A DNA stretch of 64,000 nucleotides from Clostridia bacterium. Its GTDB lineage: Bacteria > Bacillota > Clostridia > Christensenellales > QALW01. The translations under genes were made by a program, and so were the position numbers. The first letter of the stretch is position 1. The number at the start of each line of letters is the position of its first letter. Location of the stretch: assembly GCA_045541035.1 (NCBI GenBank), contig JAZQII010000059.1, positions 899 to 64,898 on the forward strand. The letters run 5' to 3'. Below the pieces are notes generated by a model, which saw nothing but the letters and a program-made list of their open reading frames with translations, was not told where the DNA came from and made no database searches. Shown here one piece after another: positions 5,523 to 64,000 of this stretch.

Positions 5523-5680
5523 TTATCCACAGGTGTTGATAACTTTGATTTCATTTGTGGATAAATTCATATGTCAAGGAAAATGGGGAAGTTAAATGTG
5601 GATAACTTTTTGGCAAAAAGGAAAGTTATCCACATAAAAGCAAAAAAACCCGTATTTTACTGAACTTTTACTGTGGATTA
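5523..5680. promoter_or_regulatory. DnaA-box cluster
   Basis: Perfect TTATCCACA boxes at 5523-5531 (+), 5556-5564 (-), 5597-5605 (-) and 5626-5634 (+). One-mismatch boxes at 5534-5542 and 5672-5680. AT-rich flanks. Confidence 0.85.
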
Positions 5681-10068: not shown

Positions 10069-10078
10069 GCAACTGTCC

Positions 10079-45425: not shown

Positions 45426-45719
45426 ATGAAAAAACTTGATAAAAATGCACTTGAAAATTTTTATAAGGCAATTCTTTTAATTGAGAACGTTGAAGAATGT
45501 GAAAACTTTTTCAACGATATTTGCACTATTCAGGAACTTGAAGCCATTGCACAGCGTTTTGACGTTGCACAAAAACTTATCGAAGGCAAAGTTTATACTG
45601 AAATAAGTAATGAAACGGGGGCAAGTACCGCAACCGTATGCAGGGTAAACCGTTGCATTAAATACGGTAACGGCGGATATAAGACCATAATCGACAGATT
45701 GGAGAAGTCAGATGATTAA
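45426..45719 (+). CDS. yerC: TrpR-like YerC/YecD regulator (HisR-type)
   Basis: FFNDICTIQELEAIAQRF and ETGASTATVCRVNRC..YGNGGY motifs. Confidence 0.9.
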   Translation: MKKLDKNALENFYKAILLIENVEECENFFNDICTIQELEAIAQRFDVAQKLIEGKVYTEISNETGASTATVCRVNRCIKYGNGGYKTIIDRLEKSDD

Positions 45720-47423: not shown

Positions 47424-48690
47424 GATTTTTAAATACGGCGAAGTTTCCAATGATGAGATATTTGCACGAAATAACCCTACGGGCGACGTTTCATCTATCG
47501 TTAAAGATATTATAGAAAACGTAAAAGTCAATGGGGACAAGGCATTAAAGGAATATTCCCAAAAATTTGATAAGGCTGAATTAACAAACATCGAAGTTAC
47601 AGAAGATGAGATCAACGAAGCATTTTCTATCGTTGAGCCTGAATTTATCCGCATTTTAAAAGATGCGGCAGAAAATATCAGAAAATTCCATTCATGCCAG
47701 AAAAGAAACAGTTTTATTATAAACGATACTGAAGGTGTTGTGGTGGGGCAAAAAGTTGTTCCCATTGAAAAAGTCGGTCTTTACGTGCCCGGCGGAACGG
47801 CAGCATATCCTTCCACAGTTTTAATGGATTCAATTCCTGCAAAGATCGCAGGTTGCAAGGAAATATGCATTACTACACCTCCTTCAAAGGACGGCAAAGT
47901 AAATCCCGTAATTCTTGCGGCGGCAAAGATCGCAGGGGTTGACAGAATATTTAAAGTCGGCGGTGCGCAGGCAGTTGCGGCGCTTGCTTACGGCACGGAA
48001 ACCGTTACAAAAGTTGATAAGATAGTTGGCCCCGGTAACGCCTTTGTTGCTGAAGCCAAACGTCAGGTTTTCGGAATGGTTGATATTGATATGATTGCAG
48101 GTCCCAGCGAGATTCTTGTTGTTGCTGACGGAAAAAGCAATGCATCTTTTGTTGCGGCAGACCTTCTTTCTCAGGCTGAACACGATAAAAATGCAAGCGC
48201 AGTTCTCGTTACCGAAAGCATGGAACTTGCCCAAAATGTTCAAAAAGAAATTGAAAATCAACTTGAAAAACTTGAAAGATTTGAAATTGCAAGAGCGTCT
48301 ATTGATAATAACGGCAAGATAATCGTCGCACCCGATATAAAATATGCAATCGAAATTGCCAATGAGATCGCACCTGAACATCTTGAACTTTGTGTTGACG
48401 ATCCGTTCAGTCTTCTTGACGGCGTTAAGCATGCAGGAAGCGTATTTATGGGAAGATACTGTCCCGAAGCCTTGGGCGATTATTTTGCAGGACCTAACCA
48501 TACACTTCCCACAAGCGGTACGGCAAGATTTTCAAGCCCTCTTTCCGTTGAAGATTTTGTTAAAACTATACAATATTCCTATTATACCGAATCGGCACTT
48601 AAAAAAGTTGCGGAAGACGTTTTCTATTTTGCAAATAAGGAAGGTTTAGGCGCCCACGCCAACAGCGCAGTTATAAGGACGAGAAAATGA
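47416..48690 (+). CDS. hisD: Histidinol dehydrogenase
   Basis: GLYVPGG, KIVGPGN, DMIAGPSE, SQAEHD, APEHLE and GDYFAGPNHTLPT motifs. Start at ATG 47416. Confidence 0.97.
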   Translation: MIKIFKYGEVSNDEIFARNNPTGDVSSIVKDIIENVKVNGDKALKEYSQKFDKAELTNIEVTEDEINEAFSIVEPEFIRILKDAAENIRKFHSCQKRNSFIINDTEGVVVGQKVVPIEKVGLYVPGGTAAYPSTVLMDSIPAKIAGCKEICITTPPSKDGKVNPVILAAAKIAGVDRIFKVGGAQAVAALAYGTETVTKVDKIVGPGNAFVAEAKRQVFGMVDIDMIAGPSEILVVADGKSNASFVAADLLSQAEHDKNASAVLVTESMELAQNVQKEIENQLEKLERFEIARASIDNNGKIIVAPDIKYAIEIANEIAPEHLELCVDDPFSLLDGVKHAGSVFMGRYCPEALGDYFAGPNHTLPTSGTARFSSPLSVEDFVKTIQYSYYTESALKKVAEDVFYFANKEGLGAHANSAVIRTRK

Positions 48691-49745
48691 GTAATTTTAT
48701 TTCAAAAAAATATGATTCTTTAAAAGAATATACGCCGGGTGAACAGCCCCAAGATAAAAAATATATAAAATTAAACACCAATGAATCACCGTTTCCGCCA
48801 TCAGATGTGGTTATTGAGTGTGTTAATAATGATGCGGTAAAGAATTTAAAACTTTATTCAGATCCCGAAAGCAAGGTTTTAAAAGAAGAACTTGCAAAAA
48901 CATATGGTGTAAAGAAAGAAAACGTTTTCGTTTCAAACGGGTCTGACGAAATACTTAATTTTGCATTTATGGCTTACGGTGAAAACGGTGCAGTTTTTAA
49001 CGATATCACATACGGTTTTTATAAGGTTTTTGCCGATCTTTATAATATTGAAGCGGATATAATTCCTTTAAATGAAGATTTTACTATTCCTTATGAAAAG
49101 TTTTTAAATAAAAATAAGTTCATCGTAATTGCAAACCCCAATGCACCTACGGGAATTTCTTTAGAAACAGAAAAAATCGAAGAAATTATAAAAAATAATC
49201 CACAAAACGTTGTTTTAATTGATGAAGCATACGTTGATTTCGGCGGAAAAACGGTGCTTCCTTTAATTGAGAAGTATAATAATCTTCTTGTTGTTCGAAC
49301 ATATTCAAAGTCAAGGTCAATGGCGGGGGCAAGGCTTGGTTACGCTTTTGCTCAAAAAGAGATAATAAAAGATCTTGAAAAGATCAAGTACTCCACAAAC
49401 CCCTATAACGTAAACCGACTTACCCAGATCGCAGGCGTAGCATCTCTTATGGATAACGAGTATTATGAAAATAATTGCCGAACCATTATGAAAAATCGCG
49501 ATTGCACAGTTAAAGAACTTGAACTTTTGGGATTTACCGTTTTAAAATCAGATGCTAACTTTATTTTTGTGAAAAGTGATAAAATTTCAGGCGAAGATTT
49601 ATATCTTAAACTTAAAGACCGCGGAATTTTAGTTCGCCATTTTACAAGCGAAAGAATAAAAGATTTTAACCGAATCACTATCGGTACATTAGAGGAAATG
49701 TATGCTTTAGTTAAAGCAGTTTCCGAGATTTTGGAGGAAAAATGA
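48687..49745 (+). CDS. hisC: Histidinol-phosphate aminotransferase
   Basis: KLNTNESP, NGSDE, NPNAPTG, DEAY and RTYSKS...AGARLG motifs. Confidence 0.95.
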   Translation: MSNFISKKYDSLKEYTPGEQPQDKKYIKLNTNESPFPPSDVVIECVNNDAVKNLKLYSDPESKVLKEELAKTYGVKKENVFVSNGSDEILNFAFMAYGENGAVFNDITYGFYKVFADLYNIEADIIPLNEDFTIPYEKFLNKNKFIVIANPNAPTGISLETEKIEEIIKNNPQNVVLIDEAYVDFGGKTVLPLIEKYNNLLVVRTYSKSRSMAGARLGYAFAQKEIIKDLEKIKYSTNPYNVNRLTQIAGVASLMDNEYYENNCRTIMKNRDCTVKELELLGFTVLKSDANFIFVKSDKISGEDLYLKLKDRGILVRHFTSERIKDFNRITIGTLEEMYALVKAVSEILEEK

Positions 49746-50329
49746 GAAACGCCAATATTAAGCGTAAAACCAACGAAACGGATATTTTATTAAAACTTGA
49801 ACTTGACGGCAAAGGTGAAAGCAAAATTGATACCGGCTGCGGTTTTCTGGATCATATGTTAACTCTTTTTGCAAAGCACGGTAAATTTGATCTTACCGTA
49901 AACTGCATCGGAGATACTTTTGTTGATTATCACCACACCGTTGAAGATATTGCAATATGCTTAGGCAAGGCATTTTCCGAAGCATTAGGCGATATGAAAG
50001 GCATTTACCGTTACGGAAGCACCATTCTTCCTATGGATGAATCGCTTATTTTAACTGCTGTTGATATTTCAGGCAGAGCATATCTTAATTTTGACGTTAA
50101 AATGCCTCAAAAACGTGTTGGTGATTTTGATACTGAACTTTGCGAAGAGTTTTTCTATGCATTTGTACGTCATGCAAACTTAACTTTACACATTAAGAAA
50201 CTTGACGGCACAAATACTCACCACATAATTGAAGGTATTTTTAAGTCTTTTGCCCGTACAATGGCGCAGGCTGTTAAAATTAACGAAGATTTTAAGGACG
50301 AAATTCCGTCAACTAAAGGTGTTTTATAA
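49742..50329 (+). CDS. hisB: Imidazoleglycerol-phosphate dehydratase
   Basis: R.TNET, FLDHML, DYHHTVED and NTHHIIE motifs. Confidence 0.97.
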   Translation: MRNANIKRKTNETDILLKLELDGKGESKIDTGCGFLDHMLTLFAKHGKFDLTVNCIGDTFVDYHHTVEDIAICLGKAFSEALGDMKGIYRYGSTILPMDESLILTAVDISGRAYLNFDVKMPQKRVGDFDTELCEEFFYAFVRHANLTLHIKKLDGTNTHHIIEGIFKSFARTMAQAVKINEDFKDEIPSTKGVL

Positions 50330-50940
50330 TGATAGCAATAATTGATTACGGTGTTGGCAACTTGTTTTCCTTAAAATCGTCTTTTAAGGCAATAGGTGAA
50401 GACGCTATAGTTACCAACGACAAAAAAATAATTGACGGGTGCGATAGAATAATTCTTCCCGGCGTAGGCGCATTTGGCGATGCGGCAAAAAAATTAAATG
50501 AAAGCGGTATGCAGGAAGTTTTGCTTCAGGAAGTGAAAAAAGGCAAACCCGTAATGGGAATTTGTCTTGGCATGCAACTTTTGTTCGATGAAAGTTATGA
50601 GTTTGGCGTTCATAAGGGACTTGGACTAATAAAAGGCTCAATAGTTCCCTTTGAAGGCAGAATAGATAAAGATTTGCGCATTCCGCAAATAGGTTGGAAC
50701 TCATTGAAGTTATATAACGATTCGCCTATATTTAAAGATCTTAATAATGGCGATTACGTATATTTTGTTCATTCTTATTTTGCCGATTGCGATAAAAAGA
50801 ACGTTATTGCAACGTCTGATTACGGCATTGAATTTACTGCCGCAGTAGAGAAAGATAACGTGTTCGGCTGTCAGTTCCACCCCGAAAAAAGCGGAGACGT
50901 GGGACTTAAGATTTTAAAAAGTTTTGCTTTAGTTAAGTGA
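50329..50940 (+). CDS. hisH: IGP synthase glutaminase subunit
   Basis: DYGVGN, PGVG, GICLGMQ and QFHPEKS motifs. Confidence 0.97.
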   Translation: MIAIIDYGVGNLFSLKSSFKAIGEDAIVTNDKKIIDGCDRIILPGVGAFGDAAKKLNESGMQEVLLQEVKKGKPVMGICLGMQLLFDESYEFGVHKGLGLIKGSIVPFEGRIDKDLRIPQIGWNSLKLYNDSPIFKDLNNGDYVYFVHSYFADCDKKNVIATSDYGIEFTAAVEKDNVFGCQFHPEKSGDVGLKILKSFALVK

Positions 50941-50950
50941 GGTTTATTTT

Positions 50951-51667
50951 ATGTTGATTTTTCCTGCTATCGACCTTTTTGAAGGTAAGGCAGTTCGCCT
51001 TTATAAGGGCAAGTATGAAGAAATGACCGTTTATTCCAAAGAACCTTGGGAGGTTTCAAAGAAATTTAAAGATGCAGGGTGTGAATATATTCACATTGTT
51101 GATCTTGAAGGAGCAAAAAACGGTGATACTCCCAATATAGAAACCGTAAAGAGAATTGTTAAGGAATCGGGACTTAAAGCCGAAATCGGCGGGGGAGTGC
51201 GTTCAATGGAAACTGTTGAAAAGTATCTTGATGCAGGCGTTATGCGTGTTATTTTAGGTACTGCGGCGGTAAAGGATCCCGTGTTTTTAGAAGAAGCCGT
51301 TAAAAAATTCAGCGAAAGAGTTGCAGTGGGTGCTGATATTTTAAACGGTAACGTTGCAATTAAAGGTTGGACGGAAACTGCAGATTTAACTTGCGATGAT
51401 TTTTTTAAAAAACTTGAAAATCTTGGCGTTCAGACGGTTATCTGCACCGATATTTCAAAGGACGGCACAATGCTTGGCACAAACCGTCAAATGTATAAAG
51501 AACTTTCCCAAAAGTTTAAAATTGATATTGTTGCATCAGGCGGAGTAAATTCCATTGATGATATTATTGCATTAAATGAAATGAATCTTTATGGTGCAAT
51601 AATCGGCAAAGCCTACTATACCGGCGCAATAGACCTTAAAAAGGCGTTGGAGGTATCAGGATGCTGA
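50951..51667 (+). CDS. hisA: ProFAR isomerase
   Basis: [26 protein letters not shown] and ASGG motifs. Confidence 0.96.
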
Positions 51668-52419
51668 CAAAAAGAATTATTCCATGCCTTGACGTTCGTG
51701 ACGGCAGAGTTGTTAAAGGCGTAAACTTTGAGGGATTAAGAGACGTTTCTTCTCCCGTTGAACTTGGAAAATTTTATTCTTCATCAGGCGCAGACGAACT
51801 TGTTTTTTATGATATTACCGCTTCCAGCGACGGCAGAAAGATTTTCACCGATATTTTAAAAGAATGCGCCAAAAATATTTTTATTCCACTTACGGTAGGC
51901 GGCGGAATCAATACGTTAGATGATTTTGAAAGGGTTCTTAATTGCGGTGCTGATAAAGTAAGCGTTAACTCAGGGGCAATAAGAAATCCTCAGATTATTG
52001 AAGATGCGGCAAAGCGTTACGGCAGTCAATGTGTGGTTTTATCTGCTGATATCAAGCGTGTTGACGGAATTTTCAAAGTTTTCGCACGCGGCGGCAGAGA
52101 TAACACAAATATTGACGCTTTAGAATGGGTAAAGCGCGGTGTTGATATGGGCGCAGGCGAAGTGGTAGTAAACTCCATTGATACTGATGGCGTTAAACAA
52201 GGCTTTGATCTTGAAATGCTTGAGAAAATTTGTGATCTTGTAAATGTTCCCGTAATTGCATCAGGCGGTGCAGGCAAGACTGAAGATTTTATTGATTTAT
52301 TTAAAAAAGTTCCTAAAATAAGCGCAGGTCTTGCGGCGTCGGTGTTCCATTTCGGGGAAATTGATATTTTGGATCTTAAAAAAGACTTAAAGAAAAATAA
52401 CATTGAAGTGAGGCTTTAA
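51661..52419 (+). CDS. hisF: IGP synthase cyclase subunit
   Basis: [32 protein letters not shown] and IDTDG motifs. Confidence 0.97.
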
Positions 52420-52421
52420 AA

Positions 52422-53069
52422 ATGGTTGATATAAATGAACTTAAATTTGATGAAAAGGGACTTATTCCCGCAGTTGTTGTTGACGCTTTTTCAAAAAAAG
52501 TGCTTACGGTTGCATATATGAACAAGGAAAGTCTTGAAATTTCCATGAAAGAGGGCAGAACTTGCTTTTTCTCACGTTCACGTCAGGAACTTTGGCGCAA
52601 AGGCGAAACAAGCGGAAACTATCAGAACATCGTTTCTATTACTTCCGATTGTGATAACGATGCTTTAACGGTAGTTGTTGAAAAAGAAGGCCCTGCTTGC
52701 CATACGGGCGAAGATTCCTGCTTCTTTAACGAAGTTTACCATGCTGAAGATAAAGAAGAATTTTCAATGGAAGGCTTATATAAACTCCTTGAAGGCAGAA
52801 AAAAAGATATGCCCGAAGGTTCTTATACCACTTATCTTTTCTCAAAGGGTAGAGATAAGATTTTGAAAAAAGTTGGCGAAGAAAGCACCGAAGTTATTAT
52901 CGGCGGTAAGGCTGACGATAAGGCGGAAACCATTTATGAAATTGCCGACCTTGCATACCACGTAATGGTTTTAATGGTAGATATGGGGATTTCCGTTAAA
53001 GATATTCAGAAAGAACTTGGCTCGCGCCACATAATCGACCATAAGGTTAAGCAGGAAAAAATGCAATGA
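52422..53069 (+). CDS. hisIE: Bifunctional PR-AMP cyclohydrolase / PR-ATP pyrophosphohydrolase
   Basis: SRSRQELWRKGETSG, DCDND and ACHTG (HisI); SYT..L, KKVGEE and EIADL.YH (HisE). Confidence 0.96.
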   Translation: MVDINELKFDEKGLIPAVVVDAFSKKVLTVAYMNKESLEISMKEGRTCFFSRSRQELWRKGETSGNYQNIVSITSDCDNDALTVVVEKEGPACHTGEDSCFFNEVYHAEDKEEFSMEGLYKLLEGRKKDMPEGSYTTYLFSKGRDKILKKVGEESTEVIIGGKADDKAETIYEIADLAYHVMVLMVDMGISVKDIQKELGSRHIIDHKVKQEKMQ

Positions 53070-53872
53070 TAAAAGAAAATTATCACACACACACTCATTT
53101 TTGCGATGGTAAAAATTCTCCCGAAGAAATGGTTTTAAAAGCCATAGAACTCAATTTTGATTATTTGGGATTTTCGGGACACGGGCATACAAGGAAGGAA
53201 AGTTCATACTGTATGTCCCCTGAAAACACAAAAAAATATTTTTCAGAAATAACCGCGTTAAAAGAAAAATATAAAGATCAGATTGAAATTCTTTGCGGAA
53301 TTGAGCAGGATATCATATCAAGTGACGATATCAGTTATTTTGACTATGCTATCGGTTCAACACATTACGTTATTAAAGATAATAAATTCTATAACGTTGA
53401 CGGGTCTATGGAAGAGTTCGATTTTGTTGTAAATGAAATTTATAAAGGTGAGTTTCTTAAATTTGCAGAAGAATATTTTGAAAACGTAAAAACTGTTGTT
53501 GATAAAACAAACTGTCAGATAATCGGGCATTTTGACCTTATTTCAAAAAACTTTGAGCGCAAAAATATTAAAGAAAGCGATAAATATCTGTATTTTGCAG
53601 AAGATGCTGTAAATGAGCTTGTTAAATATGATGTTCCTTTTGAAATAAATACCGGTGCCATTGCCCGCGGTTACAGAACGACGCCGTATCCATCTGAAAA
53701 TATTTTACAGATGATAAAAAACAAAAAGGGCAAAATTATTTTTACCAGCGATTGCCACGATAAAGACTTTTTGAATTGCTATTTTCTTGAAACCGAAAAT
53801 TTGGCTAAAAAAGTCGGATTTAAGAAAAGAAGCATTTTGACTCTAAACGGTTTTAAAGAGATTGACTTATGA
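53066..53872 (+). CDS. hisJ: PHP-family histidinol-phosphatase (HisJ/HisK type)
   Basis: HTHT..CDG, GIE, GSTH, GHFDL, EINTG and SDCH motifs; inside the his operon. Confidence 0.85.
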   Translation: MIKENYHTHTHFCDGKNSPEEMVLKAIELNFDYLGFSGHGHTRKESSYCMSPENTKKYFSEITALKEKYKDQIEILCGIEQDIISSDDISYFDYAIGSTHYVIKDNKFYNVDGSMEEFDFVVNEIYKGEFLKFAEEYFENVKTVVDKTNCQIIGHFDLISKNFERKNIKESDKYLYFAEDAVNELVKYDVPFEINTGAIARGYRTTPYPSENILQMIKNKKGKIIFTSDCHDKDFLNCYFLETENLAKKVGFKKRSILTLNGFKEIDL

Positions 53873-54663
53873 AGATAATTGACTTTCACACACACGTATA
53901 TCCCCAAAAAATTGCGCAAAAGGCAACGGAAAACGTTATTGGCTTTTACGGTCTTAAAGAAGGCTTAGGCGGCATGGTGGGCACAAGCGAAGTGCTTATT
54001 GCCTGCGGAAAAGAAGCGGGCATTGAAAATTTTGTTATTCTGCCCGTTGCATTAAAGGCAGAAACTGTCCGCCACATAAACGAAGCCGCATTACACGAAC
54101 TTGAAATACACAAAGAACTTTACGGCTTTGGCACTATTCATATTGATATGCCCGATATTTTAGGGGAAATTGAGTTTATAAAAGATAAAAAACTTAAAGG
54201 CGTTAAGATTCATCCTGATACACAGCGTTTTAACATTGATGATGAACGTCTTTTTCCGATGTATGAAGAAATTTCAGGTAAACTTCCCATAATGATCCAT
54301 TGCGGTGATCCCCGATACGATTATTCCCACCCAAGAAGATTAAAAAGAGTTTTAGATAATTTTCCCAAATTAACGGCAATCGGTGCGCATTTAGGCGGTT
54401 GGATGCTTTTTGATGAGGCTTTGGAACTTTTAAAAGATACAAACTGCTTTGTTGATATCTGTTCAAGCCATATGTTTATGGAAAAAGGTAAAATGGAATA
54501 TTATATCAACGGCTATGGGGCAGACCGTGTGCTTTTCGGCAGCGATTTTCCCATTTGGGATCCTAAAAAAGAAGCAGAAGCATTTATGGAGCTTCAGCTT
54601 ACTTATTCCCAAAAAGAAAAAATCGCATATAAAAATGCGTTATACTTATTGAAGGAGATTTGA
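53869..54663 (+). CDS. Amidohydrolase (Amidohydro_2 family)
   Basis: IDFHTH, GVKIHP, HCG, AHLGG and LFGSDFP motifs; ATGA overlap with the hisJ stop. Confidence 0.85.
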   Translation: MKIIDFHTHVYPQKIAQKATENVIGFYGLKEGLGGMVGTSEVLIACGKEAGIENFVILPVALKAETVRHINEAALHELEIHKELYGFGTIHIDMPDILGEIEFIKDKKLKGVKIHPDTQRFNIDDERLFPMYEEISGKLPIMIHCGDPRYDYSHPRRLKRVLDNFPKLTAIGAHLGGWMLFDEALELLKDTNCFVDICSSHMFMEKGKMEYYINGYGADRVLFGSDFPIWDPKKEAEAFMELQLTYSQKEKIAYKNALYLLKEI

Positions 54664-54665
54664 AG

Positions 54666-55223
54666 ATGAAAATTACTTTGTTAGGTGATTCAATCAGGCA
54701 GATCGGTTACGGTACAAAAGTTCCCGCACTTTTAGGCAAAGAATTTGAAGTTTATCAACCTGTAGAAAACTGCAGGTTTTCAAAATATACTCTGCAATCA
54801 ATAAGAGCATGGCAAAGTGATATGGAAGGCTCACGGATCATTCATTGGAACAACGGTCTTTGGGATGTTGGCAACAATTGGGGAGACGGACCTTTAACCC
54901 CCATAGACGAATATGTTGAGAATATGACGCGTATTGCAAAGGTTCTTTTAAAAAAAGCTGACAAGGTTATTTTTGCAACAATTACGCCTGTTCGTTTTGA
55001 TAATCCTGATACAGATAACGCGATTATTATGGAATATAACGATGCAATAGTTCCTGTATTAAAGGATATGGGAATTATTATAAATGACTTACATTCTCTT
55101 GTTTATCCTAATATTGAAGAATATATCCTTGAAAGCGATAAGATACATTTGACGGAAAAAGGAATTGATGCCTGCGCTGAACAGGTTGCAAAAATTATTT
55201 TAGAAACTGCAAAAACTTTATAA
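54666..55223 (+). CDS. SGNH/GDSL hydrolase
   Basis: LLGDSI, WNNGLWD and DKIHL motifs. Confidence 0.85.
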   Translation: MKITLLGDSIRQIGYGTKVPALLGKEFEVYQPVENCRFSKYTLQSIRAWQSDMEGSRIIHWNNGLWDVGNNWGDGPLTPIDEYVENMTRIAKVLLKKADKVIFATITPVRFDNPDTDNAIIMEYNDAIVPVLKDMGIIINDLHSLVYPNIEEYILESDKIHLTEKGIDACAEQVAKIILETAKTL

Positions 55224-55227
55224 AATT

Positions 55228-55259
55228 CTCCGCAGAAAACTAATTCTGCGGAGTTTTTT
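55228..55259 (+). terminator. Terminator ending the his transcript
   Basis: CTCCGCAGAA/TTCTGCGGAG plus TTTTTT. Confidence 0.85.
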
Positions 55260-55358: not shown

Positions 55359-55387
55359 TTGACAGATGGGGCATTTTGTTATATTAT
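55359..55387 (+). promoter_or_regulatory. SigA promoter of the Leu T-box leader
   Basis: TTGACA-17 bp-TATTAT. Confidence 0.7.
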
Positions 55388-55407
55388 TATAAAAAATTAA
55401 ATGATAA

Positions 55408-55674
55408 ATGCCATGAAGATATTAAACGTGTGTATTTTGCGCTTTCAGAGAGTCGCTGGTTGGTGTAAAGCGATAGGCAGGGCAAACGTTGTCTCGTATC
55501 GGAGCAGGGCCTCGGAATTTCAGTAAGAGGCTTCGGGAGTTCCCGTAACAGAACAAGGGTTTGTTTGAACCTTATTGAGTGGCTCAGATTTTGAGCAATA
55601 CGGGTGGTACCGTGGTCAAATAATTTGTTGATCATCCCGCGAAGATATAATGTATCTTTGCGGGTTTATTTTTT
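55408..55674 (+). ncRNA. T-box riboswitch, Leu specifier (CUC at 55493-55495)
   Basis: K-turn GCCATGAAGATA/TATCGGAGC, AGAGA bulge, GGTTGGTGTAA loop, T-box AATACGGGTGGTACCGTGG (55597-55615), terminator 55636-55674. Confidence 0.9.
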
Positions 55675-55695
55675 AAAAAACAAGGAGGCAGTTTT

Positions 55696-57060
55696 ATGAA
55701 GAAAATTGCAGTTTCCGACAACACACTTTTTGCAGTTGCGGAAGAAAAAAAGACACTTACTTTCAGAGAAAAACTTAACGTTTCAGCAGCGCTTGATGCT
55801 TGCGGATTTGATAATATTATTCTACCTCAACTGCTAAATGAAAAGGAAAATGCCATCGTTTACCGTACTATTGCTTCTGCCGTTGAAAATGCTTCTGTTA
55901 CAGTTTCCGTTTCTGATGAATCAAAGGTTGAAAGCGCATGGGAATCTGTTAAAGATGCTAAAAATCCCTGGATTTCAATAGTTGTTCCCGTTTCTACGGT
56001 GCAGATGGAATATCAGTATCATCTTAAAGCAACAAAAATGCTTGATAAGATTACTGCTCTTTGCGAAAGCGCAAAAAAATATACTGATAATTTTTCAGTT
56101 GTATTAAAAGATGCAACCCGTGCTGAAGACGGTTTTTTAAAAAAATGCGCAGAAACAGCATCAAAAGCAGGTGCAAAATATATTACCGTTGTTGATGATG
56201 CAGGTATTGCTTTCTCTGAAGAAATTTTTAAAATGGTTTCTGAAATCAAAGATATTATTCCTGTTTATGTTCAGCCGTCGGATATGCTTAAAATGGCTGC
56301 TTCATGCGCAGTTGAAGCAATTAAGGCAGGGGCAGAGGGTATAGTTACATCTACCGTTGGTCCTTGGCTTCGCGCTGATGTTTTATCTGATATTTTAAGG
56401 GCAAGAGGATTTGATCTTCAAACAGAAACGAGTCTTGATAAAACCAATATCCACAGAACTGTTGATGAGATCAACGTTAAAGGTGAAGCCGTTAAGGAAA
56501 TAAATATTGAAGAAAAACTTATTTCAGGTCTTGATGAAAGTGCAACGATAGATGATATCAAAGCCGCCGTACAGACTTTAGGCTATGAACTTTCCAGCGA
56601 AGATTACGGCAAGGTTTTTGAAGAATTTAAGCGCGTATCTCAAAAGCGCGGTGTTATCGGTGCAAGAGAGTTGGAAGCAATTATTGCAACAAGCGCAATG
56701 CAGGTGCCCTCAACATATCATCTTATAAACTACGTTGTAAATAACGGTAACGTTATTACTGCAACTGCAAGCATTATTCTTGAAAAAGACGGTGAAAGAA
56801 TTTCAGGTGTTGCAACGGGCGACGGTCCCATTGATGCTTCATTCCACGCCATTGAACAGATAATCGGTCATCATTACGAACTTGATGATTTTAAAGTTGA
56901 ATCTGTTACAAAGGGCAGGGAAGCCGTTGGGTCATCAATTATCCGTCTTCGTGCTAACGGAAAACTTTATTCAGGAAACGGTGTTTCCACCGATATTGTT
57001 GGCGCATGTATCCGTGCTTACGTCAACGCACTTAACAAAATAGTTTACGAGGAAAACTAA
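55696..57060 (+). CDS. LeuA-like protein: degenerate HMGL-like barrel plus intact LeuA regulatory domain
   Basis: C-terminal GDGPIDA and STDIV.AC..AYVNALN present. Catalytic DTTLRDGEQ, HxHND and GERAGN motifs are replaced. Confidence 0.85.
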   Translation: MKKIAVSDNTLFAVAEEKKTLTFREKLNVSAALDACGFDNIILPQLLNEKENAIVYRTIASAVENASVTVSVSDESKVESAWESVKDAKNPWISIVVPVSTVQMEYQYHLKATKMLDKITALCESAKKYTDNFSVVLKDATRAEDGFLKKCAETASKAGAKYITVVDDAGIAFSEEIFKMVSEIKDIIPVYVQPSDMLKMAASCAVEAIKAGAEGIVTSTVGPWLRADVLSDILRARGFDLQTETSLDKTNIHRTVDEINVKGEAVKEINIEEKLISGLDESATIDDIKAAVQTLGYELSSEDYGKVFEEFKRVSQKRGVIGARELEAIIATSAMQVPSTYHLINYVVNNGNVITATASIILEKDGERISGVATGDGPIDASFHAIEQIIGHHYELDDFKVESVTKGREAVGSSIIRLRANGKLYSGNGVSTDIVGACIRAYVNALNKIVYEEN

Positions 57061-57061
57061 T

Positions 57062-59512
57062 ATGAAATTTGCTTTTTCAACCGAAAACGTAAAGGCACTT
57101 TCGTTTTTGGAATATTGTAATATAACAAGTCAATACGGCTTTCAGGGGTTTGAGATCGCCGATCCCTTTAATGAGAAAAAAGATCATGACGACAGCGTTT
57201 TTCATTCTTCACAGATGAATGCGTCAAAAAGAAAACTTGTAAACCGCCACATTGATATAAGCGTGGTATCATTTCCAAAAAAGATAGATAAAAATACCGA
57301 CGCTGAACAACTTAAAAAAGCCGTTGAAATGGCGGCTATGGCAGGAGTTGGTAAAGTTTGCGTTTCTTTTTCGGAGATTCCTGAAGAAGAAACACTTAAA
57401 AATATTTTTGCGCCTGCTGTGGCTATTGCCGAAAGGTACGATATGTCAATTCTTATTGAAACTGACGGCGTACTTTCCGATACTAAAAAGGTTCTTGATG
57501 TTATAAACGTTTTCAGCAATGCTGTTTTCGGCGTTTCCTGGAACATTCGCGAAACGTACTTTAACCATAAAGAATCTGCCGATGAAACAATTCAGACTTT
57601 AGGCGCATATATAGAATATGTAAGAATCGGTGATAAAAAGGGCGAAAACAACGTTTTGATGGGCGAGGGTGAATTACCTGTTAAAGACTTCGTAAACGCC
57701 TTAAAAAGCCTTAATTTTGACGGTTACGTTTGTGCTTTATGGAATGATGAAATTACAGATCCCGATATTGTGCTTACACATTTTATCAGTTTTATGCAGA
57801 ACAGCGAAACAAAAGAGACTGAAGAAATTCACTATAACAGATCGAAAACGGGCACTTTCCCTTGGAAGAGATATGATGTTTTAAATATCACTTTTTCTGA
57901 AGTTCTTGATACAATGGTAGAAAAGTATCCCGATCAGTATGCTTTTAAATATACTACTCTTGATTATACGAGAACTTACTCTCAATTCCGCGATGACGTT
58001 GATAAAGTTGCGGCAGCGCTTATTTCTTTAGGTGTAAAACCAGGTCATCACGTTGCTATCTGGGCAACAAACGTGCCCCAATGGTTCTTAACTTTCTGGG
58101 CATCGGTTAAGATCGGCGCAGTTTTGGTAACTGTAAACACCGCATATAAAATTCATGAAGTTGAATATCTTTTAAGACAGTCCGATACCCATACTCTTGT
58201 TATGATAGAGGATTGTAAGGATTCTAACTATAAAGAAATTATCGAGGAACTTTGCCCCGAACTTAAAAATATTGAGCCGGGCAAACCCTTATATTCAAAA
58301 GCATTGCCGTTCTTAAGAAACGTTGTTTCAGTTGGATTTAATATGGACGGTTGTCTTGAATGGGATGATTTTATGAAGCGCAGCGATCTTGTTCCAAGAG
58401 AAGAAGTGCGCAGACGTGCTTCCATGGTTAAGCCTGATGACGTATGTAATATGCAGTATACTTCAGGTACAACGGGATTCCCCAAGGGCGTTATGCTTAC
58501 CCATAACAACATTATCAATAACGGCAAGATAATCGGCGACAGAATGGATACTTCTACCGCTGACAGAATGATGATTCAAGTGCCTATGTTCCATTGCTTC
58601 GGCATGGTACTTTCAATGACTAATATGATGACCCACGGCGGAACTATCTGCCCGATGCCGTATTTCTCGCCAAAATCATCTCTTGCATGTATCCACAACG
58701 AGAAGATAACGTGCTTTAACGGTGTTCCCACCATGTTTATTGCAATGTTCAATCATGAGGATTTTGCAAAAACAGATTTTTCACATATCAGAACGGGCAT
58801 TATGGCAGGCGCAAACTGTCCTGCTGATCTTATGCGCCGCGCTGCTGACGAAATGAACATGAAAGAGATTATAAGTGTTTATGGTCAGACGGAAGCATCT
58901 CCCGGTTGCACTATGGGCGAAGTAAACGAAGATATCGATCACCGCGTTGAAACGGTAGGCAGTGCTTTCCCCGGTGTTGAATGTAAGATTATTGATCCTG
59001 AAACGGGAGAAGAATTGCCTGACGGTGAAAACGGTGAGTTCGTTGCACGCGGCTATAATATTATGAAAGGATATTATAAAATGCCAAAGGCAACGGAGCA
59101 GACCATTGATAAAGACGGTTGGCTTCATTCAGGTGATATCTGTATGAGAACACCTGACGGATACTATAAGGTTACGGGCCGCTTAAAAGATATGATCATT
59201 CGCGGCGGTGAAAACCTTTATCCAAGAGAGATAGAAGAATTTTATCTTACTCACGAAAAAGTCCGCGACGTTCAGGTAGTCGGTGTTCCCGATGAACGCT
59301 ATGGCGAAGAAGCCTGCGCCTGGATAATTATTAACGAGGGCGAAACAAGCGACGAAAATGAAATGCGCGCCTACGGTGATTCCCATATGGCAAAGCACAA
59401 AGTTCCCAGATATTTTGTGTTTACCAAGGAATTTCCAATGAATGCGGCAGGTAAAATTCTTAAATATAAGATGCGCGATCAGTCTATTGAAATTTTAGGC
59501 TTAAAAAAATAA
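57062..59512 (+). CDS. Fusion of a xylose-isomerase-like (AP_endonuc_2) barrel and an AMP-forming acyl-CoA synthetase
   Basis: QYTSGTTGFPKG, YGQTE, GWLHSGD, RLKDMIIRGGENLYP and NAAGKILK motifs; about 255-aa TIM-barrel N-terminus. Confidence 0.88.
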   Translation: MKFAFSTENVKALSFLEYCNITSQYGFQGFEIADPFNEKKDHDDSVFHSSQMNASKRKLVNRHIDISVVSFPKKIDKNTDAEQLKKAVEMAAMAGVGKVCVSFSEIPEEETLKNIFAPAVAIAERYDMSILIETDGVLSDTKKVLDVINVFSNAVFGVSWNIRETYFNHKESADETIQTLGAYIEYVRIGDKKGENNVLMGEGELPVKDFVNALKSLNFDGYVCALWNDEITDPDIVLTHFISFMQNSETKETEEIHYNRSKTGTFPWKRYDVLNITFSEVLDTMVEKYPDQYAFKYTTLDYTRTYSQFRDDVDKVAAALISLGVKPGHHVAIWATNVPQWFLTFWASVKIGAVLVTVNTAYKIHEVEYLLRQSDTHTLVMIEDCKDSNYKEIIEELCPELKNIEPGKPLYSKALPFLRNVVSVGFNMDGCLEWDDFMKRSDLVPREEVRRRASMVKPDDVCNMQYTSGTTGFPKGVMLTHNNIINNGKIIGDRMDTSTADRMMIQVPMFHCFGMVLSMTNMMTHGGTICPMPYFSPKSSLACIHNEKITCFNGVPTMFIAMFNHEDFAKTDFSHIRTGIMAGANCPADLMRRAADEMNMKEIISVYGQTEASPGCTMGEVNEDIDHRVETVGSAFPGVECKIIDPETGEELPDGENGEFVARGYNIMKGYYKMPKATEQTIDKDGWLHSGDICMRTPDGYYKVTGRLKDMIIRGGENLYPREIEEFYLTHEKVRDVQVVGVPDERYGEEACAWIIINEGETSDENEMRAYGDSHMAKHKVPRYFVFTKEFPMNAAGKILKYKMRDQSIEILGLKK

Positions 59513-59521
59513 AAAAAACAG

Positions 59522-59550
59522 TTGACAAGATAAAAACATCGTGCTAAAAT
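59522..59550 (+). promoter_or_regulatory. SigA promoter of the Ile T-box leader
   Basis: TTGACA-17 bp-TAAAAT with TG extension. Confidence 0.8.
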
Positions 59551-59571
59551 TCATACATAATTAAATATAAA

Positions 59572-59840
59572 GGCTATGACGAAGACGGAACCAATCAAGG
59601 TTTCACAGAGAGTCGGGGCAGGTGGAAGCCCGATAAACAAAGGTTGTTATTCCTATCACTTCTGAGCTGAAGATCCGAAAAAATATTTGTAGGCGTCTTC
59701 CGTGATTGCTGCGTAAAGGCATCGGGCTTGTAGGAGCTTTAAGGGGTACGGGTCATACCGTGCAAATTGAGTGGTACCGCGGGTATTGTTAAAAAACATG
59801 ACTCGTCTCAATGATTTTTGAGACGGGTCTTTTTATTTTT
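59572..59840 (+). ncRNA. T-box riboswitch, Ile specifier (AUC at 59655-59657)
   Basis: GGCTATGACGAAG/CTTCTGAGC K-turn, CAGAGAG, GGTGGAAG loop, T-box AAATTGAGTGGTACCGCGG (59764-59782), terminator 59800-59840. Confidence 0.92.
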
Positions 59841-59862
59841 AAAAGAAAAGGAGAGAGCAAAA

Positions 59863-62130
59863 ATGGACACAAACAACACTATGACAAGACTTTCGGAGAT
59901 AGCTTCGCGAATTAAGGAGATGCGCGAGATTATGGGCTATTCCCAAAGTGAAATGGCAGAAAAAACTGAAGTTACACTTGATGCTTACGTTCAGTACGAA
60001 GGCGGTGTGGCTGACATTCCTTTTACTTTTATTCATAAGTGCGCACTTGTTTTTGACGTTGAACTTTCAGAACTTCTTGAAGGTAAAGGTGCACACCTTT
60101 CGGGCTATACCGTAACAAGAAAAGGTCAAGGTCAGGTTACCGCTAAAGAAGAGGGTATTGATATTAAAAACCTTGCACCTAAATTCCGTGATAAAATTGC
60201 TGAGCCTTATATGGTTCGCTATGAATATTCTCTTGATCAGCAGAACAAACCTATCCATTTAACGAAACACTCAGGTCAGGAATTTGATCTTGTGCTTTCA
60301 GGTTCCTTAAAGGTGCAGGTAGGTGATAATACCGAGGTTCTTCATGAAGGAGACAGTATCTATTACAATTCATCAACACCTCACGGAATGATTGCTGTTG
60401 ACGGCAAGGAATGTATTTTCTGCGCAGTTGTTCTTCCCGGAGAAGACACAAAGGAAGAAGAAGTTCGTGAAAGCATCGTTTCTGCAAAAACTTCAGAAAC
60501 GCTTATCTGTGAAAAGTTCGTAAAATGTCAGGAAGACGAAAAAGGCGTTTTACAGAATATTGAATTTAAAAACACCGATACTTTCAACTTCGGTTTTGAT
60601 ATAGTTGATGAAATTGCAAATAAATATCCCGATAAACTTGCAATGCTTCACGTTGACAAAAATCACGTTGAGCGCAGATTTACCTTTAAAGATATAAAGC
60701 GCGCTTCCAACCAGACGGCAAACTATTTTGCTTCCCTTGGTATCAAACGCGGTGATAAAGTAATGCTTGTTTTAAAGCGTCATTATCAGTTCTGGTTCGC
60801 AATGGTTGCACTTCATAAACTTGGCGCAATCGCAATTCCTGCAACCAATCAGTTAAAGGAACATGATTTTGAATATCGTTATAATGCCGCAGGCGTTAAA
60901 GCAATAGTTATCACCTCCGATGGTGACGTTTCCGATATAGCAGAACGCGCCGCAGAAAAATGTCCTCAGGTTGAAACAAAGATAATCGTTGGCACACCTA
61001 AAGAAGGCTGGCACGATTTTAACGAAGAATACGTTCGTTTTTCTGGAAAATTTGAGCGCGAGGAAAATGCTTCGGCAGGCGATGAAGCGGCACTTATGTT
61101 CTTTACTTCAGGAACAACGGGCAATCCCAAAATGGCTTCACACAAGCACACTTATGCTTTAGGTCATTTCGTTACCGCAAAATATTGGCATTGCTGTGAG
61201 CGTGACGGACTTCACCTTACCATTTCCGATACCGGTTGGGGTAAATCTCTTTGGGGTAAACTTTACGGTCAGTGGCTTTGCGAAGGCGCAGTTTTCGTTT
61301 ATGACTTTGACCGTTTTGATGCTCAGGATATTTTGCCTATGTTCAAAAAGTACAACATCACAACATTCTGCGCACCGCCTACAATGCTCAGAATGTTCAT
61401 AAAAGACGATCTTTCCAAGTTTGATCTTTCAAGCATTCACCACATCACAACTGCAGGTGAAGCGCTTAATCCCGAAGTTTATAAGCAATTTAAACTTGCT
61501 ACGGGCCTTGAGATCATGGAAGGCTTCGGTCAGACCGAAACAACACTTACTATCTGCAATCTTCGCGGCACAACGCCCAAGATCGGCTCAATGGGTAAGG
61601 CTTCACCTCAGTATGACGTTGATATCGTTGATCCTGACGGCAACTCACTTCCTGACGGTGAAACGGGTGAGATCGTAATTCACACAGATAAAAGCGTGCC
61701 TTGCGGTCTTTTCAGAGAATATTATCTTGATGATGAAAAGACTAAGGATGCCTGGCATGACGGCATGTATCACACAGGCGATACTGCATGGCGCGATGAA
61801 GACGGTTATTTCTGGTACGTAAGCCGTATTGATGACGTTATCAAGTCTTCAGGTTACAGAATAGGGCCCTTTGAGATCGAAAGCGTTATCATGGAACTTC
61901 CTTACGTTTTAGAGTGCGGTGTTTCCGCGGCGCCTGACGAGATCCGCGGTCAGGTAGTTAAAGCAAGCATAGTTTTAACAAAGGGAACGGTTCCTTCCGA
62001 AGAACTTAAAAAGGAGATTCAGGAGTACGTAAAGAGCCATACTGCACCTTATAAATATCCCAGAATCGTTGTTTTCTGCGATGAACTTCCCAAAACCATA
62101 AGCGGAAAGATCCAGCGTAACAAACTTTAA
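59863..62130 (+). CDS. XRE-HTH-cupin-acyl-CoA synthetase fusion
   Basis: RIKEMRE HTH, HSGQEF..V.SG cupin, then FFTSGTTGNPKM, GFGQTE, YHTGD, SSGYRIGPFEIE and PKTISGKI motifs. Confidence 0.9.
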   Translation: MDTNNTMTRLSEIASRIKEMREIMGYSQSEMAEKTEVTLDAYVQYEGGVADIPFTFIHKCALVFDVELSELLEGKGAHLSGYTVTRKGQGQVTAKEEGIDIKNLAPKFRDKIAEPYMVRYEYSLDQQNKPIHLTKHSGQEFDLVLSGSLKVQVGDNTEVLHEGDSIYYNSSTPHGMIAVDGKECIFCAVVLPGEDTKEEEVRESIVSAKTSETLICEKFVKCQEDEKGVLQNIEFKNTDTFNFGFDIVDEIANKYPDKLAMLHVDKNHVERRFTFKDIKRASNQTANYFASLGIKRGDKVMLVLKRHYQFWFAMVALHKLGAIAIPATNQLKEHDFEYRYNAAGVKAIVITSDGDVSDIAERAAEKCPQVETKIIVGTPKEGWHDFNEEYVRFSGKFEREENASAGDEAALMFFTSGTTGNPKMASHKHTYALGHFVTAKYWHCCERDGLHLTISDTGWGKSLWGKLYGQWLCEGAVFVYDFDRFDAQDILPMFKKYNITTFCAPPTMLRMFIKDDLSKFDLSSIHHITTAGEALNPEVYKQFKLATGLEIMEGFGQTETTLTICNLRGTTPKIGSMGKASPQYDVDIVDPDGNSLPDGETGEIVIHTDKSVPCGLFREYYLDDEKTKDAWHDGMYHTGDTAWRDEDGYFWYVSRIDDVIKSSGYRIGPFEIESVIMELPYVLECGVSAAPDEIRGQVVKASIVLTKGTVPSEELKKEIQEYVKSHTAPYKYPRIVVFCDELPKTISGKIQRNKL

Positions 62131-62138
62131 AAAATCAG

Positions 62139-62168
62139 TTGACAATTTTTTGTGAGATATGATATAAT
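62139..62168 (+). promoter_or_regulatory. SigA promoter of the Val T-box leader
   Basis: TTGACA-18 bp-TATAAT with TG extension. Confidence 0.75.
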
Positions 62169-62183
62169 TCTCATATATTAAAA

Positions 62184-62442
62184 GGCTTTGACGAAGAGGG
62201 AATTATAGCTTCAGTCCAAAGAGAAACGGCGGTTGGTGTAAGCCGTTGTCTGAACTGTGATTTTTGTAGCTTCTGAGCCGAAAGGAAGAAAGAATTTTTA
62301 TTCAAGTAGAACCTTTCCGTTATTGCTGCGTAAATGCATAAGGCTTGTTTGAGTCTGAGGTGGCACAGTTTGTGCAATTTGAGTGGTACCGCGGGTAATG
62401 TTTGCTCGTCTCAAAGTAATCATATCTTTGAGGCGGGCTTTT
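62184..62442 (+). ncRNA. T-box riboswitch, Val specifier (GUA at 62266-62268)
   Basis: GGCTTTGACGAAG/CTTCTGAGCC K-turn, AAGAGA, GGTTGGTGTAAG loop, T-box AATTTGAGTGGTACCGCGG (62376-62394), terminator 62404-62442. Confidence 0.92.
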
Positions 62443-62475
62443 ATTGTTTGCCTGAAGTATTTGGAGGATTATTTT

Positions 62476-64000
62476 ATGAAAACAGCAACCGGTCTTGAAT
62501 TTAAGATTCAGGAAATGGCGCAACGTATTAAAACGCTGCGCGAGATCGTTGGGCTTTCTCAGGAAGAAATGGCTTTAAAAACGGGTGTTTCTTTTGAAGA
62601 ATACGTTGCTTGTGAAGAAGGTAAAGATGATCTTAACTTTGCATTCCTTTACAAGTGCGCTATTGCCCTTAACGTTGACGTTACTGATATTATTGATGGC
62701 TCAAGCCCCCGTCTTGCAGGTTATACTTTAACTCGTAAAGGGGAAGGTCAGGAAATTCAGAAAGCGCACGGCATGACCTATTATAACCTTGCCCCGTCTT
62801 TCAAAAACCGTATTGCCGAGCCGTTGTACGTAGTTTTTCCGTATGATGAAAACTCACAGAACAAGGATATAGAACTTACCACCCACGAAGGTCAGGAATG
62901 TGATATCGTTATTTCAGGTGCTTTGAAAGTGCAGGTTGGCGACCACGTTGAGATTCTTCACGAAGGCGACAGTATTTATTACGATTCATCAAAGCCCCAC
63001 GGCATGATCGCAGTTGAAAATGCTGACTGTATTTTCTATGCATTCGTTCTTAATTCCAATCAGGAAAGCGTTCAGGAACTTGTTCACGGCGGAACACGTG
63101 ATTTTATGTTTGCGCCCAAAAAGAAGAAAGCAAGTTCTGAAAGAAAGCGTGTTTGGGAAGATTTTATTATTCCCGAAGAAGACGAAAACGGCGTTTTAAA
63201 GAAAATATCCTTTAAAAATGAAGATAATTTCAACTTCGCTTTTGATGTTATTGATCGTTTAGGCGAGGAACAGCCTGATAAAACGGCACTTATGCATATC
63301 GGTGTTGACGGAACTGAACACAGATTTACCTTTAAAGAACTTAAACGTGCAAGTTCACAGACCGCCAACTACTTTAAGTCTTTGGGAATTAAAAAAGGCG
63401 ATAAAGTAATGCTTATTTTAAAGCGTCATTATCAGTTCTGGTTCTCAATGATCGCACTTCACAAGATCGGTGCAATAGCAATTCCCGCAACAAATCAGTT
63501 AAAGGAACACGATATTACTTACCGCTTCAATAAAGCAGGGGTAAAGATGATTATCTGTACTTCAGACGGCATCGTTGCAGATGAAGTAGATAAAGCAGAT
63601 GAACTTTCGCCCTCCCTTGAAACAAAGATTATCGTTGGTGCTTCCCGTGAAGGCTGGCATAATTTTGACGAAGAATACAGCCTTTATACCGGTAAACTTG
63701 AGCGCGATGAAAATTCACCTTGTGGCGACGATATGCTGCTTATGTACTTTACTTCAGGTACAACGGGCAATCCTAAACTTGCAATGCACTCATATAAATA
63801 TCCTTTAGGTCATTTTATTACCGCAAAATATTGGCATTGCGTAAATCCCGATGGCTTGCACCTTACCATTTCCGATACAGGTTGGGCAAAAGCCGCATGG
63901 GGTAAGATGTATGGACAGTGGCTCTCAGAAGCAGGCATCTTTGCCTACGACTTTGACCGTTTCGATGCAAACGATATTATGCCAATGTTCGCAAAATATA
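62476..64000 (+). CDS. Second XRE-HTH-cupin-acyl-CoA synthetase fusion (3' truncated by window edge; absent from ORF track)
   Basis: GGAGG RBS, ATG 62476. Hand translation MKTATGLEFKIQEMAQRIKTLREIVG...HEGQEC...KRHYQFW...YFTSGTTGNPK...LTISDTGW stays open to the window end; collinear with 59863..62130. Confidence 0.9.
   Translation, partial: MKTATGLEFKIQEMAQRIKTLREIVGLSQEEMALKTGVSFEEYVACEEGKDDLNFAFLYKCAIALNVDVTDIIDGSSPRLAGYTLTRKGEGQEIQKAHGMTYYNLAPSFKNRIAEPLYVVFPYDENSQNKDIELTTHEGQECDIVISGALKVQVGDHVEILHEGDSIYYDSSKPHGMIAVENADCIFYAFVLNSNQESVQELVHGGTRDFMFAPKKKKASSERKRVWEDFIIPEEDENGVLKKISFKNEDNFNFAFDVIDRLGEEQPDKTALMHIGVDGTEHRFTFKELKRASSQTANYFKSLGIKKGDKVMLILKRHYQFWFSMIALHKIGAIAIPATNQLKEHDITYRFNKAGVKMIICTSDGIVADEVDKADELSPSLETKIIVGASREGWHNFDEEYSLYTGKLERDENSPCGDDMLLMYFTSGTTGNPKLAMHSYKYPLGHFITAKYWHCVNPDGLHLTISDTGWAKAAWGKMYGQWLSEAGIFAYDFDRFDANDIMPMFAKY

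Follow-up and report, generated by a model that had tools for sequence, protein, structure and literature searches.

The stretch analysed here, hereafter the window, comprises 64,000 nucleotides (nt) of contig JAZQII010000059.1 from a bacterium of the class Clostridia (assembly GCA_045541035.1). From position 55,359 to its end, it carries a cluster of three consecutive units in which a promoter, a T-box leader and an intrinsic terminator precede a gene for an AMP-forming acyl-CoA synthetase (Table 1). The leaders carry specifier codons for leucine (Leu), isoleucine (Ile) and valine (Val), in this order. In the Leu unit, a LeuA-like gene stands between the leader and the ligase gene; the Ile unit encodes a single ligase. 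The ligase gene of the Val unit, which starts with ATG behind a GGAGG ribosome-binding site, is cut by the end of the window. On the contig, the unit continues with genes for the aminotransferase IlvE, a small P-loop nucleoside triphosphatase (NTPase) and the subunits of a ferredoxin-dependent oxidoreductase that is assigned to the VOR type.

Table 1 Features of the three T-box units. Window positions count from the first nucleotide of the window; L001 positions refer to the 13-kb stretch that includes the continuation on the contig. aa, amino acids; HTH, helix-turn-helix; TIM, triosephosphate isomerase; TPP, thiamine pyrophosphate.
Feature	Window	L001	Strand	Evidence
Promoter, Leu unit	55359..55387	258-286	+	TTGACA, 17 nt, TATTAT; 11/12 consensus
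T-box leader, Leu CUC (55493-55495), UGGU	55404..55642		+	RF00230 107.2 bits, E 1e-23, full model
Intrinsic terminator, Leu leader	55636..55674		+	13-bp stem then U run; -19.1 kcal/mol, z -5.6
LeuA-like protein, predicted pseudoenzyme, 454 aa	55696..57060		+	HMGL-like 72.6 bits, LeuA_dimer 102 bits (Pfam)
Leu-unit ligase, 816 aa, TIM barrel + AMP-forming synthetase; candidate isovalerate-CoA ligase	57062..59512		+	Pfam
Promoter, Ile unit	59522..59550	4421-4449	+	TTGACA, 17 nt, TAAAAT, TG extension; 11/12 consensus
T-box leader, Ile AUC (59655-59657), UGGU	59567..59813		+	RF00230 82.9 bits, E 3e-17, full model
Intrinsic terminator, Ile leader	59800..59839		+	12-bp stem then U run; -19.7 kcal/mol, z -6.8
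Ile-unit ligase, 755 aa, HTH_3 + Cupin_2 + MacS-type synthetase; candidate 2-methylbutyrate-CoA ligase	59863..62130		+	Pfam
Promoter, Val unit	62139..62168	7038-7067	+	TTGACA, 18 nt, TATAAT, TG extension; 12/12 consensus, best in stretch
T-box leader, Val GUA (62266-62268), UGGU	62179..62416		+	RF00230 90.6 bits, E 3e-19, full model
Intrinsic terminator, Val leader	62404..62450		+	13-bp stem then UUUUAUUGUUU; -20.3 kcal/mol, z -6.4
Val-unit ligase, 766 aa, HTH_3 + Cupin_2 + MacS-type synthetase; candidate isobutyrate-CoA ligase	62476..64000	to 9675	+	Pfam, full protein
IlvE aminotransferase, class IV		9676-10770	+	NF009897 477 vs 307 bits; TIGR01123 400 vs 250 bits
P-loop NTPase, 222 aa		10763-11431	+	Walker A GHYGSGKT
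Vor delta, 68 aa, two-cluster ferredoxin-like		11433-11639	+	two CxxCxxCxxxCP motifs
Vor alpha		11629-12711	+	VorB subfamily NF005507, 563 vs 399 bits
Vor beta, TPP-binding		12711 to contig end	+	TPP_enzyme_C

The initial annotation, made from the letters of the window, had proposed the three T-box units and their specifiers CTC, ATC and GTA at 55493, 59655 and 62266. Both proposals stand. Each leader matches the Rfam T-box covariance model RF00230 (positions 1-219; gathering score 93 bits) over its full length and is flanked by a near-consensus promoter and a strong terminator, and the covariance alignment and the raw sequence give identical codons. The gathering score is exceeded by the Leu leader alone, with the Val and Ile leaders just under it. 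The three leaders share one register, in which the specifier is followed by a conserved base and a 4-bp basal helix (CUC-G-UAUC, AUC-A-CUUC and GUA-G-CUUC) and then by a GA motif of the kink-turn (K-turn). The T-box sequence is GGUGGUACCG or AGUGGUACCGCG in 3/3 leaders, all of which display UGGU. As a control of the register, we read the other seven T-boxes of the genome, and each gave the correct amino acid for its gene: GUA for a ValRS-like class I protein, CCC for ProRS, UUC for PheS, UGG for two TrpB-like proteins, ACC for ThrRS and AUC for an IleRS fragment. The specifier reading in the cluster is thus validated by an identical register that fits all seven. In a promoter scan of the 13-kb stretch, the top three sigma-70-like sites were those preceding the three leaders. 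In addition, the leaders make up 3 of the 10 T-boxes found in the 2.5-Mb genome by a genome-wide Rfam scan, and they lie within 7 kb.

On the tRNA side, the initial annotation had linked the UGGU bulges to an A73 discriminator in tRNA-Leu, tRNA-Ile and tRNA-Val. All genes for tRNA-Leu and tRNA-Val in the genome end in A73-CCA and hence fit UGGU; no tRNA-Ile gene was found in the assembly. The GUA specifier has a partner in tRNA-Val(UAC), encoded by three genes. The tRNA-Leu anticodons assembled are AAG, UAG, UAA, CAG and CAA (tRNA genes on contigs C23, C12, C31, C38 and C80). GAG is not among them; the draft may lack some genes, or else CUC may be read by a modified AAG anticodon.

The initial annotation had also described one AMP-forming synthetase with intact motifs in each unit. 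This is borne out for all three: AMP-binding and AMP-binding_C matches are full-length, and motifs A3, A5, A7, A8 and A10 are intact. It had overlooked that the Leu unit opens with a LeuA-like gene and that all three ligases are fusion proteins of 755-816 aa. In the Ile and Val ligases, which share 63% identity, HTH and cupin domains precede the synthetase. The ligase domains of both are about 52% identical, over the whole domain and with 620 bits, to that of the medium-chain acyl-CoA synthetase of Methanosarcina acetivorans (MacsMa, PDB 3ETC), whose preferred substrate is 2-methylbutyrate (PMC10455477). The position of Trp414, which closes the acyl pocket in Acs, is occupied by Gly in all three cluster ligases; together with the relationship to 3ETC and the motifs, this marks the Ile and Val ligases, and only these, as MacS-type. 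A tryptophan in the sequence TAKYW is conserved in the Ile and Val ligases and in MacsMa, and probably corresponds to Trp259, called critical in PMC10455477.

Comparison of Ile-type with Val-type ligases from relatives (see below) revealed 19 strictly group-specific positions, 13 of them in the HTH domain and linker and six in the ligase domain. One of these six is the acyl-pocket position aligned to Acs Val310, which is Gly in 81/81 Ile-type ligases, as in MacsMa (Gly278), and Ala in 48/48 Val-type ligases. One extra methyl group, as in Ala, is what a pocket for a C4 acid would be expected to have when compared with one for a C5 acid.

In the Leu unit, the LeuA-like protein misses all LeuA equivalog cut-offs (214 vs at least 532 bits). 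Neither the window protein nor any of the 24 orthologues retains the RDGEQ, HxH, GERAGN or SGIHQDG motif; each has been lost or deleted. Conservation is highest in the LeuA_dimer regulatory domain, where the GDGPIDA loop is kept. Judged by these motifs, the protein is a catalytically dead pseudoenzyme that has retained its regulatory domain. The ligase that follows carries an N-terminal, xylose-isomerase-like TIM barrel (AP_endonuc_2, 45.8 bits) in front of its synthetase domains (AMP-binding, 326 bits; AMP-binding_C, 55.8 bits). Its top NCBIfam match is PRK12583, with 672 bits, under the cut-off of 832. A fusion of TIM barrel and ligase of this type is found in 2336 database proteins, and the TIM-barrel domain gave only insignificant matches to PDB sequences.

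Beyond the window, the genes of the Val unit, from the ligase through Vor gamma, overlap or are separated by gaps of 0-2 nt. The source contig ends within the beta gene; the full-length beta and the gamma subunit (POR domain) are seen in a 96%-identical relative (L004). The class of the oxidoreductase is assigned by the VorB-subfamily alpha subunit together with the TPP-binding beta, the gamma and the ferredoxin-like delta subunits, and its activity on branched substrates is predicted. A VorABC-type oxidoreductase and IlvE beyond position 64,000, which the initial annotation had proposed to look for, therefore exist directly downstream in the Val unit as a VorB-type enzyme and an IlvE equivalog. 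By the same token, the statement that the units encode no ilv enzyme was wrong, since the Val unit runs on to IlvE just past the window end. In at least 44 loci, the gene for the P-loop NTPase is flanked by that for the ligase or IlvE on one side and by the oxidoreductase genes on the other. It has no sequence match in PDB, and its model has a generic fold of the SIMIBI class, with a distant resemblance (template-modelling, TM, scores of 0.5-0.65) to the signal recognition particle (SRP)/FtsY family and the ATPase-type HypB. A role as a NifH-like, ATP-driven donor of low-potential electrons was considered and rejected, because the protein has a single, non-conserved-looking Cys and shares only the generic SIMIBI fold.

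The arrangement is widespread among relatives. A scan of species-representative genomes gave at least 534 stretches with relatives of the HTH-cupin-ligase proteins, the best 80 of which were analysed. These come from uncultured gut and rumen Clostridia bins (sheep, goat, yak, buffalo, rabbit and others); no cultured host of the cluster was found, the named members all being metagenome bins. With a covariance model of stem I, 150 leaders were identified in the 80 species-level loci, their sequences all distinct and with a mean identity of about 0.6. Pairing between the specifier and the first gene is kept in 149/150. AUC precedes an Ile-type ligase in 76/76 cases, GUA or GUC (50 and 4, respectively) a Val-type ligase in 53/54, and CUC or CUG (17 and 3) the unit of dead LeuA and TIM-barrel ligase in 20/20; the single exception is a Val T-box with no assigned downstream gene. 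The synonymous switches GUA/GUC and CUC/CUG indicate that selection acts on which amino acid is read rather than on the sequence. Gene order follows two conserved arrangements, both of which invariably include IlvE, the P-loop gene and the oxidoreductase. The predicted dedication of each ligase to the acid matching the amino acid of its T-box is supported by two independent observations, this pairing and the pocket residue.

More distant relatives shed light on the origin of the large ligases. In 12/12 distant loci of the same order (L093-L104), the HTH-cupin protein has its own gene, immediately 5' of that for an unfused MacS-type ligase. One of these loci (L102) has a TIM-barrel gene 3' of a Leu-type ligase gene, which itself has a CUG T-box on its 5' side. 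Three of the unfused pairs are preceded by AUC T-boxes, and the stem-I model, which is narrow, detects T-boxes in 3/12 of these loci. Seen against these separate gene pairs, the 755-816-aa proteins of the window are conserved two-gene modules that have become fused, and this speaks for joint action of the extra domains and the ligases.

The de novo pathway was not detected in the genome, a draft of 2.5 Mb in 109 contigs that is 96% complete. In tblastn searches, E. coli IlvC, IlvD, IlvI and LeuC found no matches, in agreement with the loss of ilv and leu genes that the initial annotation had proposed to look for; E. coli IlvE matched only the cluster gene. In relatives, the ilvD family is absent from 29/33 cluster-bearing genomes and present in 14/14 controls. 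A true ilvD was found in three cluster-bearing genomes, two of which (L059 and L071) have no Val ligase at the locus. In an even sample of the same order (n=151), ilvD occurs in 0/16 genomes with two fused ligases vs 63/135 others.

The RNA elements with their specifiers, the gene content, the conserved pairing and the lack of detectable de novo genes are direct observations. On these we base our reading of the cluster as a three-unit, tRNA-gated system, comprising ligases, VOR and IlvE, for the supply of Leu, Ile and Val by salvage of branched short-chain fatty acids, to which we assign a probability of roughly 0.8. The initial annotation had arrived at the same interpretation, which now gains the downstream oxidoreductase and IlvE, the undetected de novo genes and the specifiers confirmed by covariance alignment. 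The enzyme activities and the flux direction of the route are predicted, as are the substrate preferences of the ligases and the reductive operation of the oxidoreductase.

The proposed mechanism would run as follows. The three transcription units would each be governed by their own promoter and a transcription-attenuating T-box. Following the established T-box mechanism, uncharged tRNA-Leu, tRNA-Ile or tRNA-Val is inferred to switch its leader, pairing with CUC, AUC or GUA and with UGGU, so that the antiterminator would be stabilised and the polymerase would read into the unit. The ligases would then make the CoA thioesters of isovalerate (Leu unit), 2-methylbutyrate (Ile unit) and isobutyrate (Val unit). 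With CO2 and reduced ferredoxin, the VorB-type enzyme would convert these acyl-CoAs to 2-oxoisocaproate, 2-oxo-3-methylvalerate and 2-oxoisovalerate. The genome's only branched-chain aminotransferase would finally turn the 2-oxoacids into Leu, Ile and Val. The downstream steps, shared by the three branches, would be supplied by the Val unit. In an organism lacking the de novo ilv and leu genes, such a route would be the only source of these amino acids besides uptake.

Several observations weigh against this reading. VOR and IlvE lie behind the Val T-box only, and no strong internal promoter for them was seen in the scan of the 13-kb stretch. Supply of Ile or Leu when Val is ample would consequently need basal read-through, joint starvation or an unseen promoter. 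In the draft assembly, tRNA-Leu(GAG), the exact partner of the CUC specifier, was not found, and neither was tRNA-Ile. Moreover, with a 96%-complete draft in 109 contigs, the absence of ilv and leu genes is not absolute. The ilvD association (Fisher p 2e-4) carries no correction for phylogeny, and six families account for the 16 genomes with two fused ligases. The Leu ligase belongs to a separate branch, with 24% identity to MacsMa, and no characterised isovalerate-specific relative of it was identified. Finally, neither the Ile nor the Val ligase reaches the equivalog cut-off of MbcS (NF047394), to which both have their highest match in NCBIfam.

Among the alternatives, the one that survives best retains the pathway and takes the ligases to be promiscuous, each accepting all three branched acids. 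The T-boxes would then sum three starvation signals, and the specifier would not predict the substrate. Adenylation by MacsMa extends to a wide variety of C3-C8 and branched acids (PMC10455477), and Ile-type and Val-type ligase domains differ strictly at only the six positions mentioned above. However, one of these positions is the pocket residue, where Gly and Ala run in the direction expected for C5 and C4 acids, and MacsMa completes the reaction to the CoA ester with 2-methylbutyrate and not with many other acids (PMC10455477). In addition, paralogue and specifier are paired in 129/130 Ile and Val leaders from 80 species, and genomes that keep ilvD tend to keep the Ile-type ligase only. We regard full promiscuity as improbable.

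Alternatively, the ligases might feed membrane lipids by providing branched acyl-CoA primers in the manner of MbcS, the T-boxes being switched on when primers derived from amino acids run short. MbcS allows exogenous acids to be used for branched-chain fatty acid synthesis (PMC10026030, PMC11167679), and in distant genomes pairs of T-box and ligase occur with no adjacent oxidoreductase. The MbcS match, however, scores 443.9 bits where the equivalog cut-off is 850. The Val ligase shares its transcription unit with the genome's only IlvE and with the VorB-type oxidoreductase, which are not needed for primers, and the cluster tracks the loss of ilvD. One switch per amino acid for each paralogue also fits amino acid supply better. 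These points make a lipid function quite improbable as an alternative; the two uses are not exclusive, and primer supply is possible as a second use of the salvage enzymes. A catabolic cluster, in which Val, Ile and Leu would be broken down to acyl-CoAs by IlvE and the oxidoreductase for energy while the ligases run in reverse or recycle products, can hardly be sustained: VOR-type enzymes are oxidative in peptide-fermenting archaea (PMC3942289), but T-box induction signals a scarce amino acid, the wrong signal for degradation, AMP-forming ligases cost two ATP equivalents where fermenters use ADP-forming synthetases or kinase routes (PMC3942289), and the cluster genomes appear unable to make these amino acids de novo.

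Within the salvage reading, ligand sensing by the dead LeuA, the TIM barrel and the HTH-cupin modules is probably a second layer of control, although the support for this is weak. The HTH-cupin model is of moderate quality (predicted local distance difference test, pLDDT, 69) and gave matches at the level of architecture only, to the regulator 1Y9Q and to the enzymes HppE and HEPD. Since these include both a regulator and enzymes, they do not decide between a regulatory and an enzyme-like role. More specifically, though this is tentative and on balance doubtful, each ligase may be doubly gated, by its T-box and by a fused sensor that was formerly encoded by a partner gene, with arm-specific sensors and a P-loop helper. 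In the Leu arm, the leucine-binding domain of the dead LeuA would impose end-product feedback on the TIM-barrel ligase. For Ile and Val, a signal specific to each paralogue would be sensed by the HTH-cupin modules, which would modulate either the enzyme itself or its transcription. The P-loop NTPase of the SIMIBI class would assist the anabolic oxidoreductase as a novel type of partner.

Other loci of the genome may follow a related logic. Two TrpB-like pyridoxal phosphate (PLP) enzymes are each encoded behind their own Trp (UGG) T-box (contigs C52:25200-28000 and C89:1200-3994; L088 and L089), and may serve an indole-to-tryptophan salvage built on the same principle. A further AMP-forming ligase adjoins a pair of IorA/IorB-type indolepyruvate:ferredoxin oxidoreductase genes (contig C30:4500-11500; L092, minus strand 1582-5542). 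The genome-wide Rfam scan found no T-box at this locus, which may represent an equivalent of the branched-acid route for aryl acids. Directly upstream of the cluster lies a complete-looking histidine biosynthesis operon (window 45712-55223) with its own terminator (about 55228-55253). It contains hisZ-like, hisG, hisD, hisC, hisB, hisH and hisF genes, as well as genes for a PHP-type histidinol phosphatase and an amidohydrolase and a gene for a 187-aa protein.

T-boxes of Firmicutes control genes for aminoacyl-tRNA synthetases, amino acid biosynthesis and transporters; the Bacillus subtilis ilv-leu operon, for instance, has a T-box with a Leu specifier. The leaders described here resemble known T-boxes (RF00230) in their K-turn, specifier loop, UGGN and terminator/antiterminator, as well as in a logic by which uncharged tRNA would raise amino acid supply. 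Their targets are different: acyl-CoA synthetases, a ferredoxin-dependent oxidoreductase and IlvE, that is, a predicted salvage rather than a de novo pathway. Moreover, three different specifiers occur in one cluster, one for each enzyme predicted to activate a precursor. Acyl-CoA synthetase or VOR targets are not mentioned in the T-box survey of Wels 2008 (PMC2494555), and our text searches of the literature returned no description of clusters of acyl-CoA synthetase and VOR under T-box control.

The enzymes likewise have known relatives. The Ile and Val ligases resemble MacsMa in the 52% identity, the Gly at the position of Acs Trp414 and the TAKYW tryptophan. They differ from it by their N-terminal HTH-cupin module, their occurrence as two specialised paralogues and their association with T-boxes. 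MbcS of Staphylococcus aureus, a synthetase for short branched-chain acids, uses 2-methylbutyrate and isobutyrate and feeds fatty acid synthesis. The Ile and Val ligases, in spite of their best match to it, are not members of this family (444 vs 850 bits), and literature searches turned up no T-box control of MbcS.

It has been known since the 1960s that anaerobes of rumen and gut require isobutyrate, 2-methylbutyrate and isovalerate, from which they build Val, Ile and Leu, and these 'isoacids' are fed to cattle. Reductive carboxylation in rumen organisms leads from 2-methylbutyrate to Ile and from isovalerate to Leu (PMC2812497, PMC7356843). The cluster holds the enzyme set that this anabolic VOR route of rumen bacteria and methanogens requires, namely acid activation, VOR and an aminotransferase (PMC2812497, PMC7356843). 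In the papers searched, the route is described by physiology and labelling, without a dedicated, regulated gene set. Here, in contrast, the genes are clustered and apparently gated by tRNA, and a conserved P-loop NTPase gene goes with them. The RNA switches are unremarkable T-boxes, and the enzymes belong to known superfamilies. As far as the literature was searched, what is new is the combination: three T-box specificities that would each gate their own ligase, a conserved salvage system that appears to replace the de novo pathway, and fusions with a pseudoenzyme or sensors.

The cluster offers candidate genes and a control logic for the branched-acid route of the rumen. Since each RNA switch names the amino acid served, it acts as a built-in annotation, from which substrates can be predicted for three 'AMP-binding proteins' of a type found in hundreds of uncultured Clostridia species. 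The pseudoenzyme and sensor-domain fusions represent a possible second layer of control. Overall, the salvage reading would extend the T-box regulon from aminoacyl-tRNA synthetases, de novo pathways and transporters to salvage by cross-feeding.

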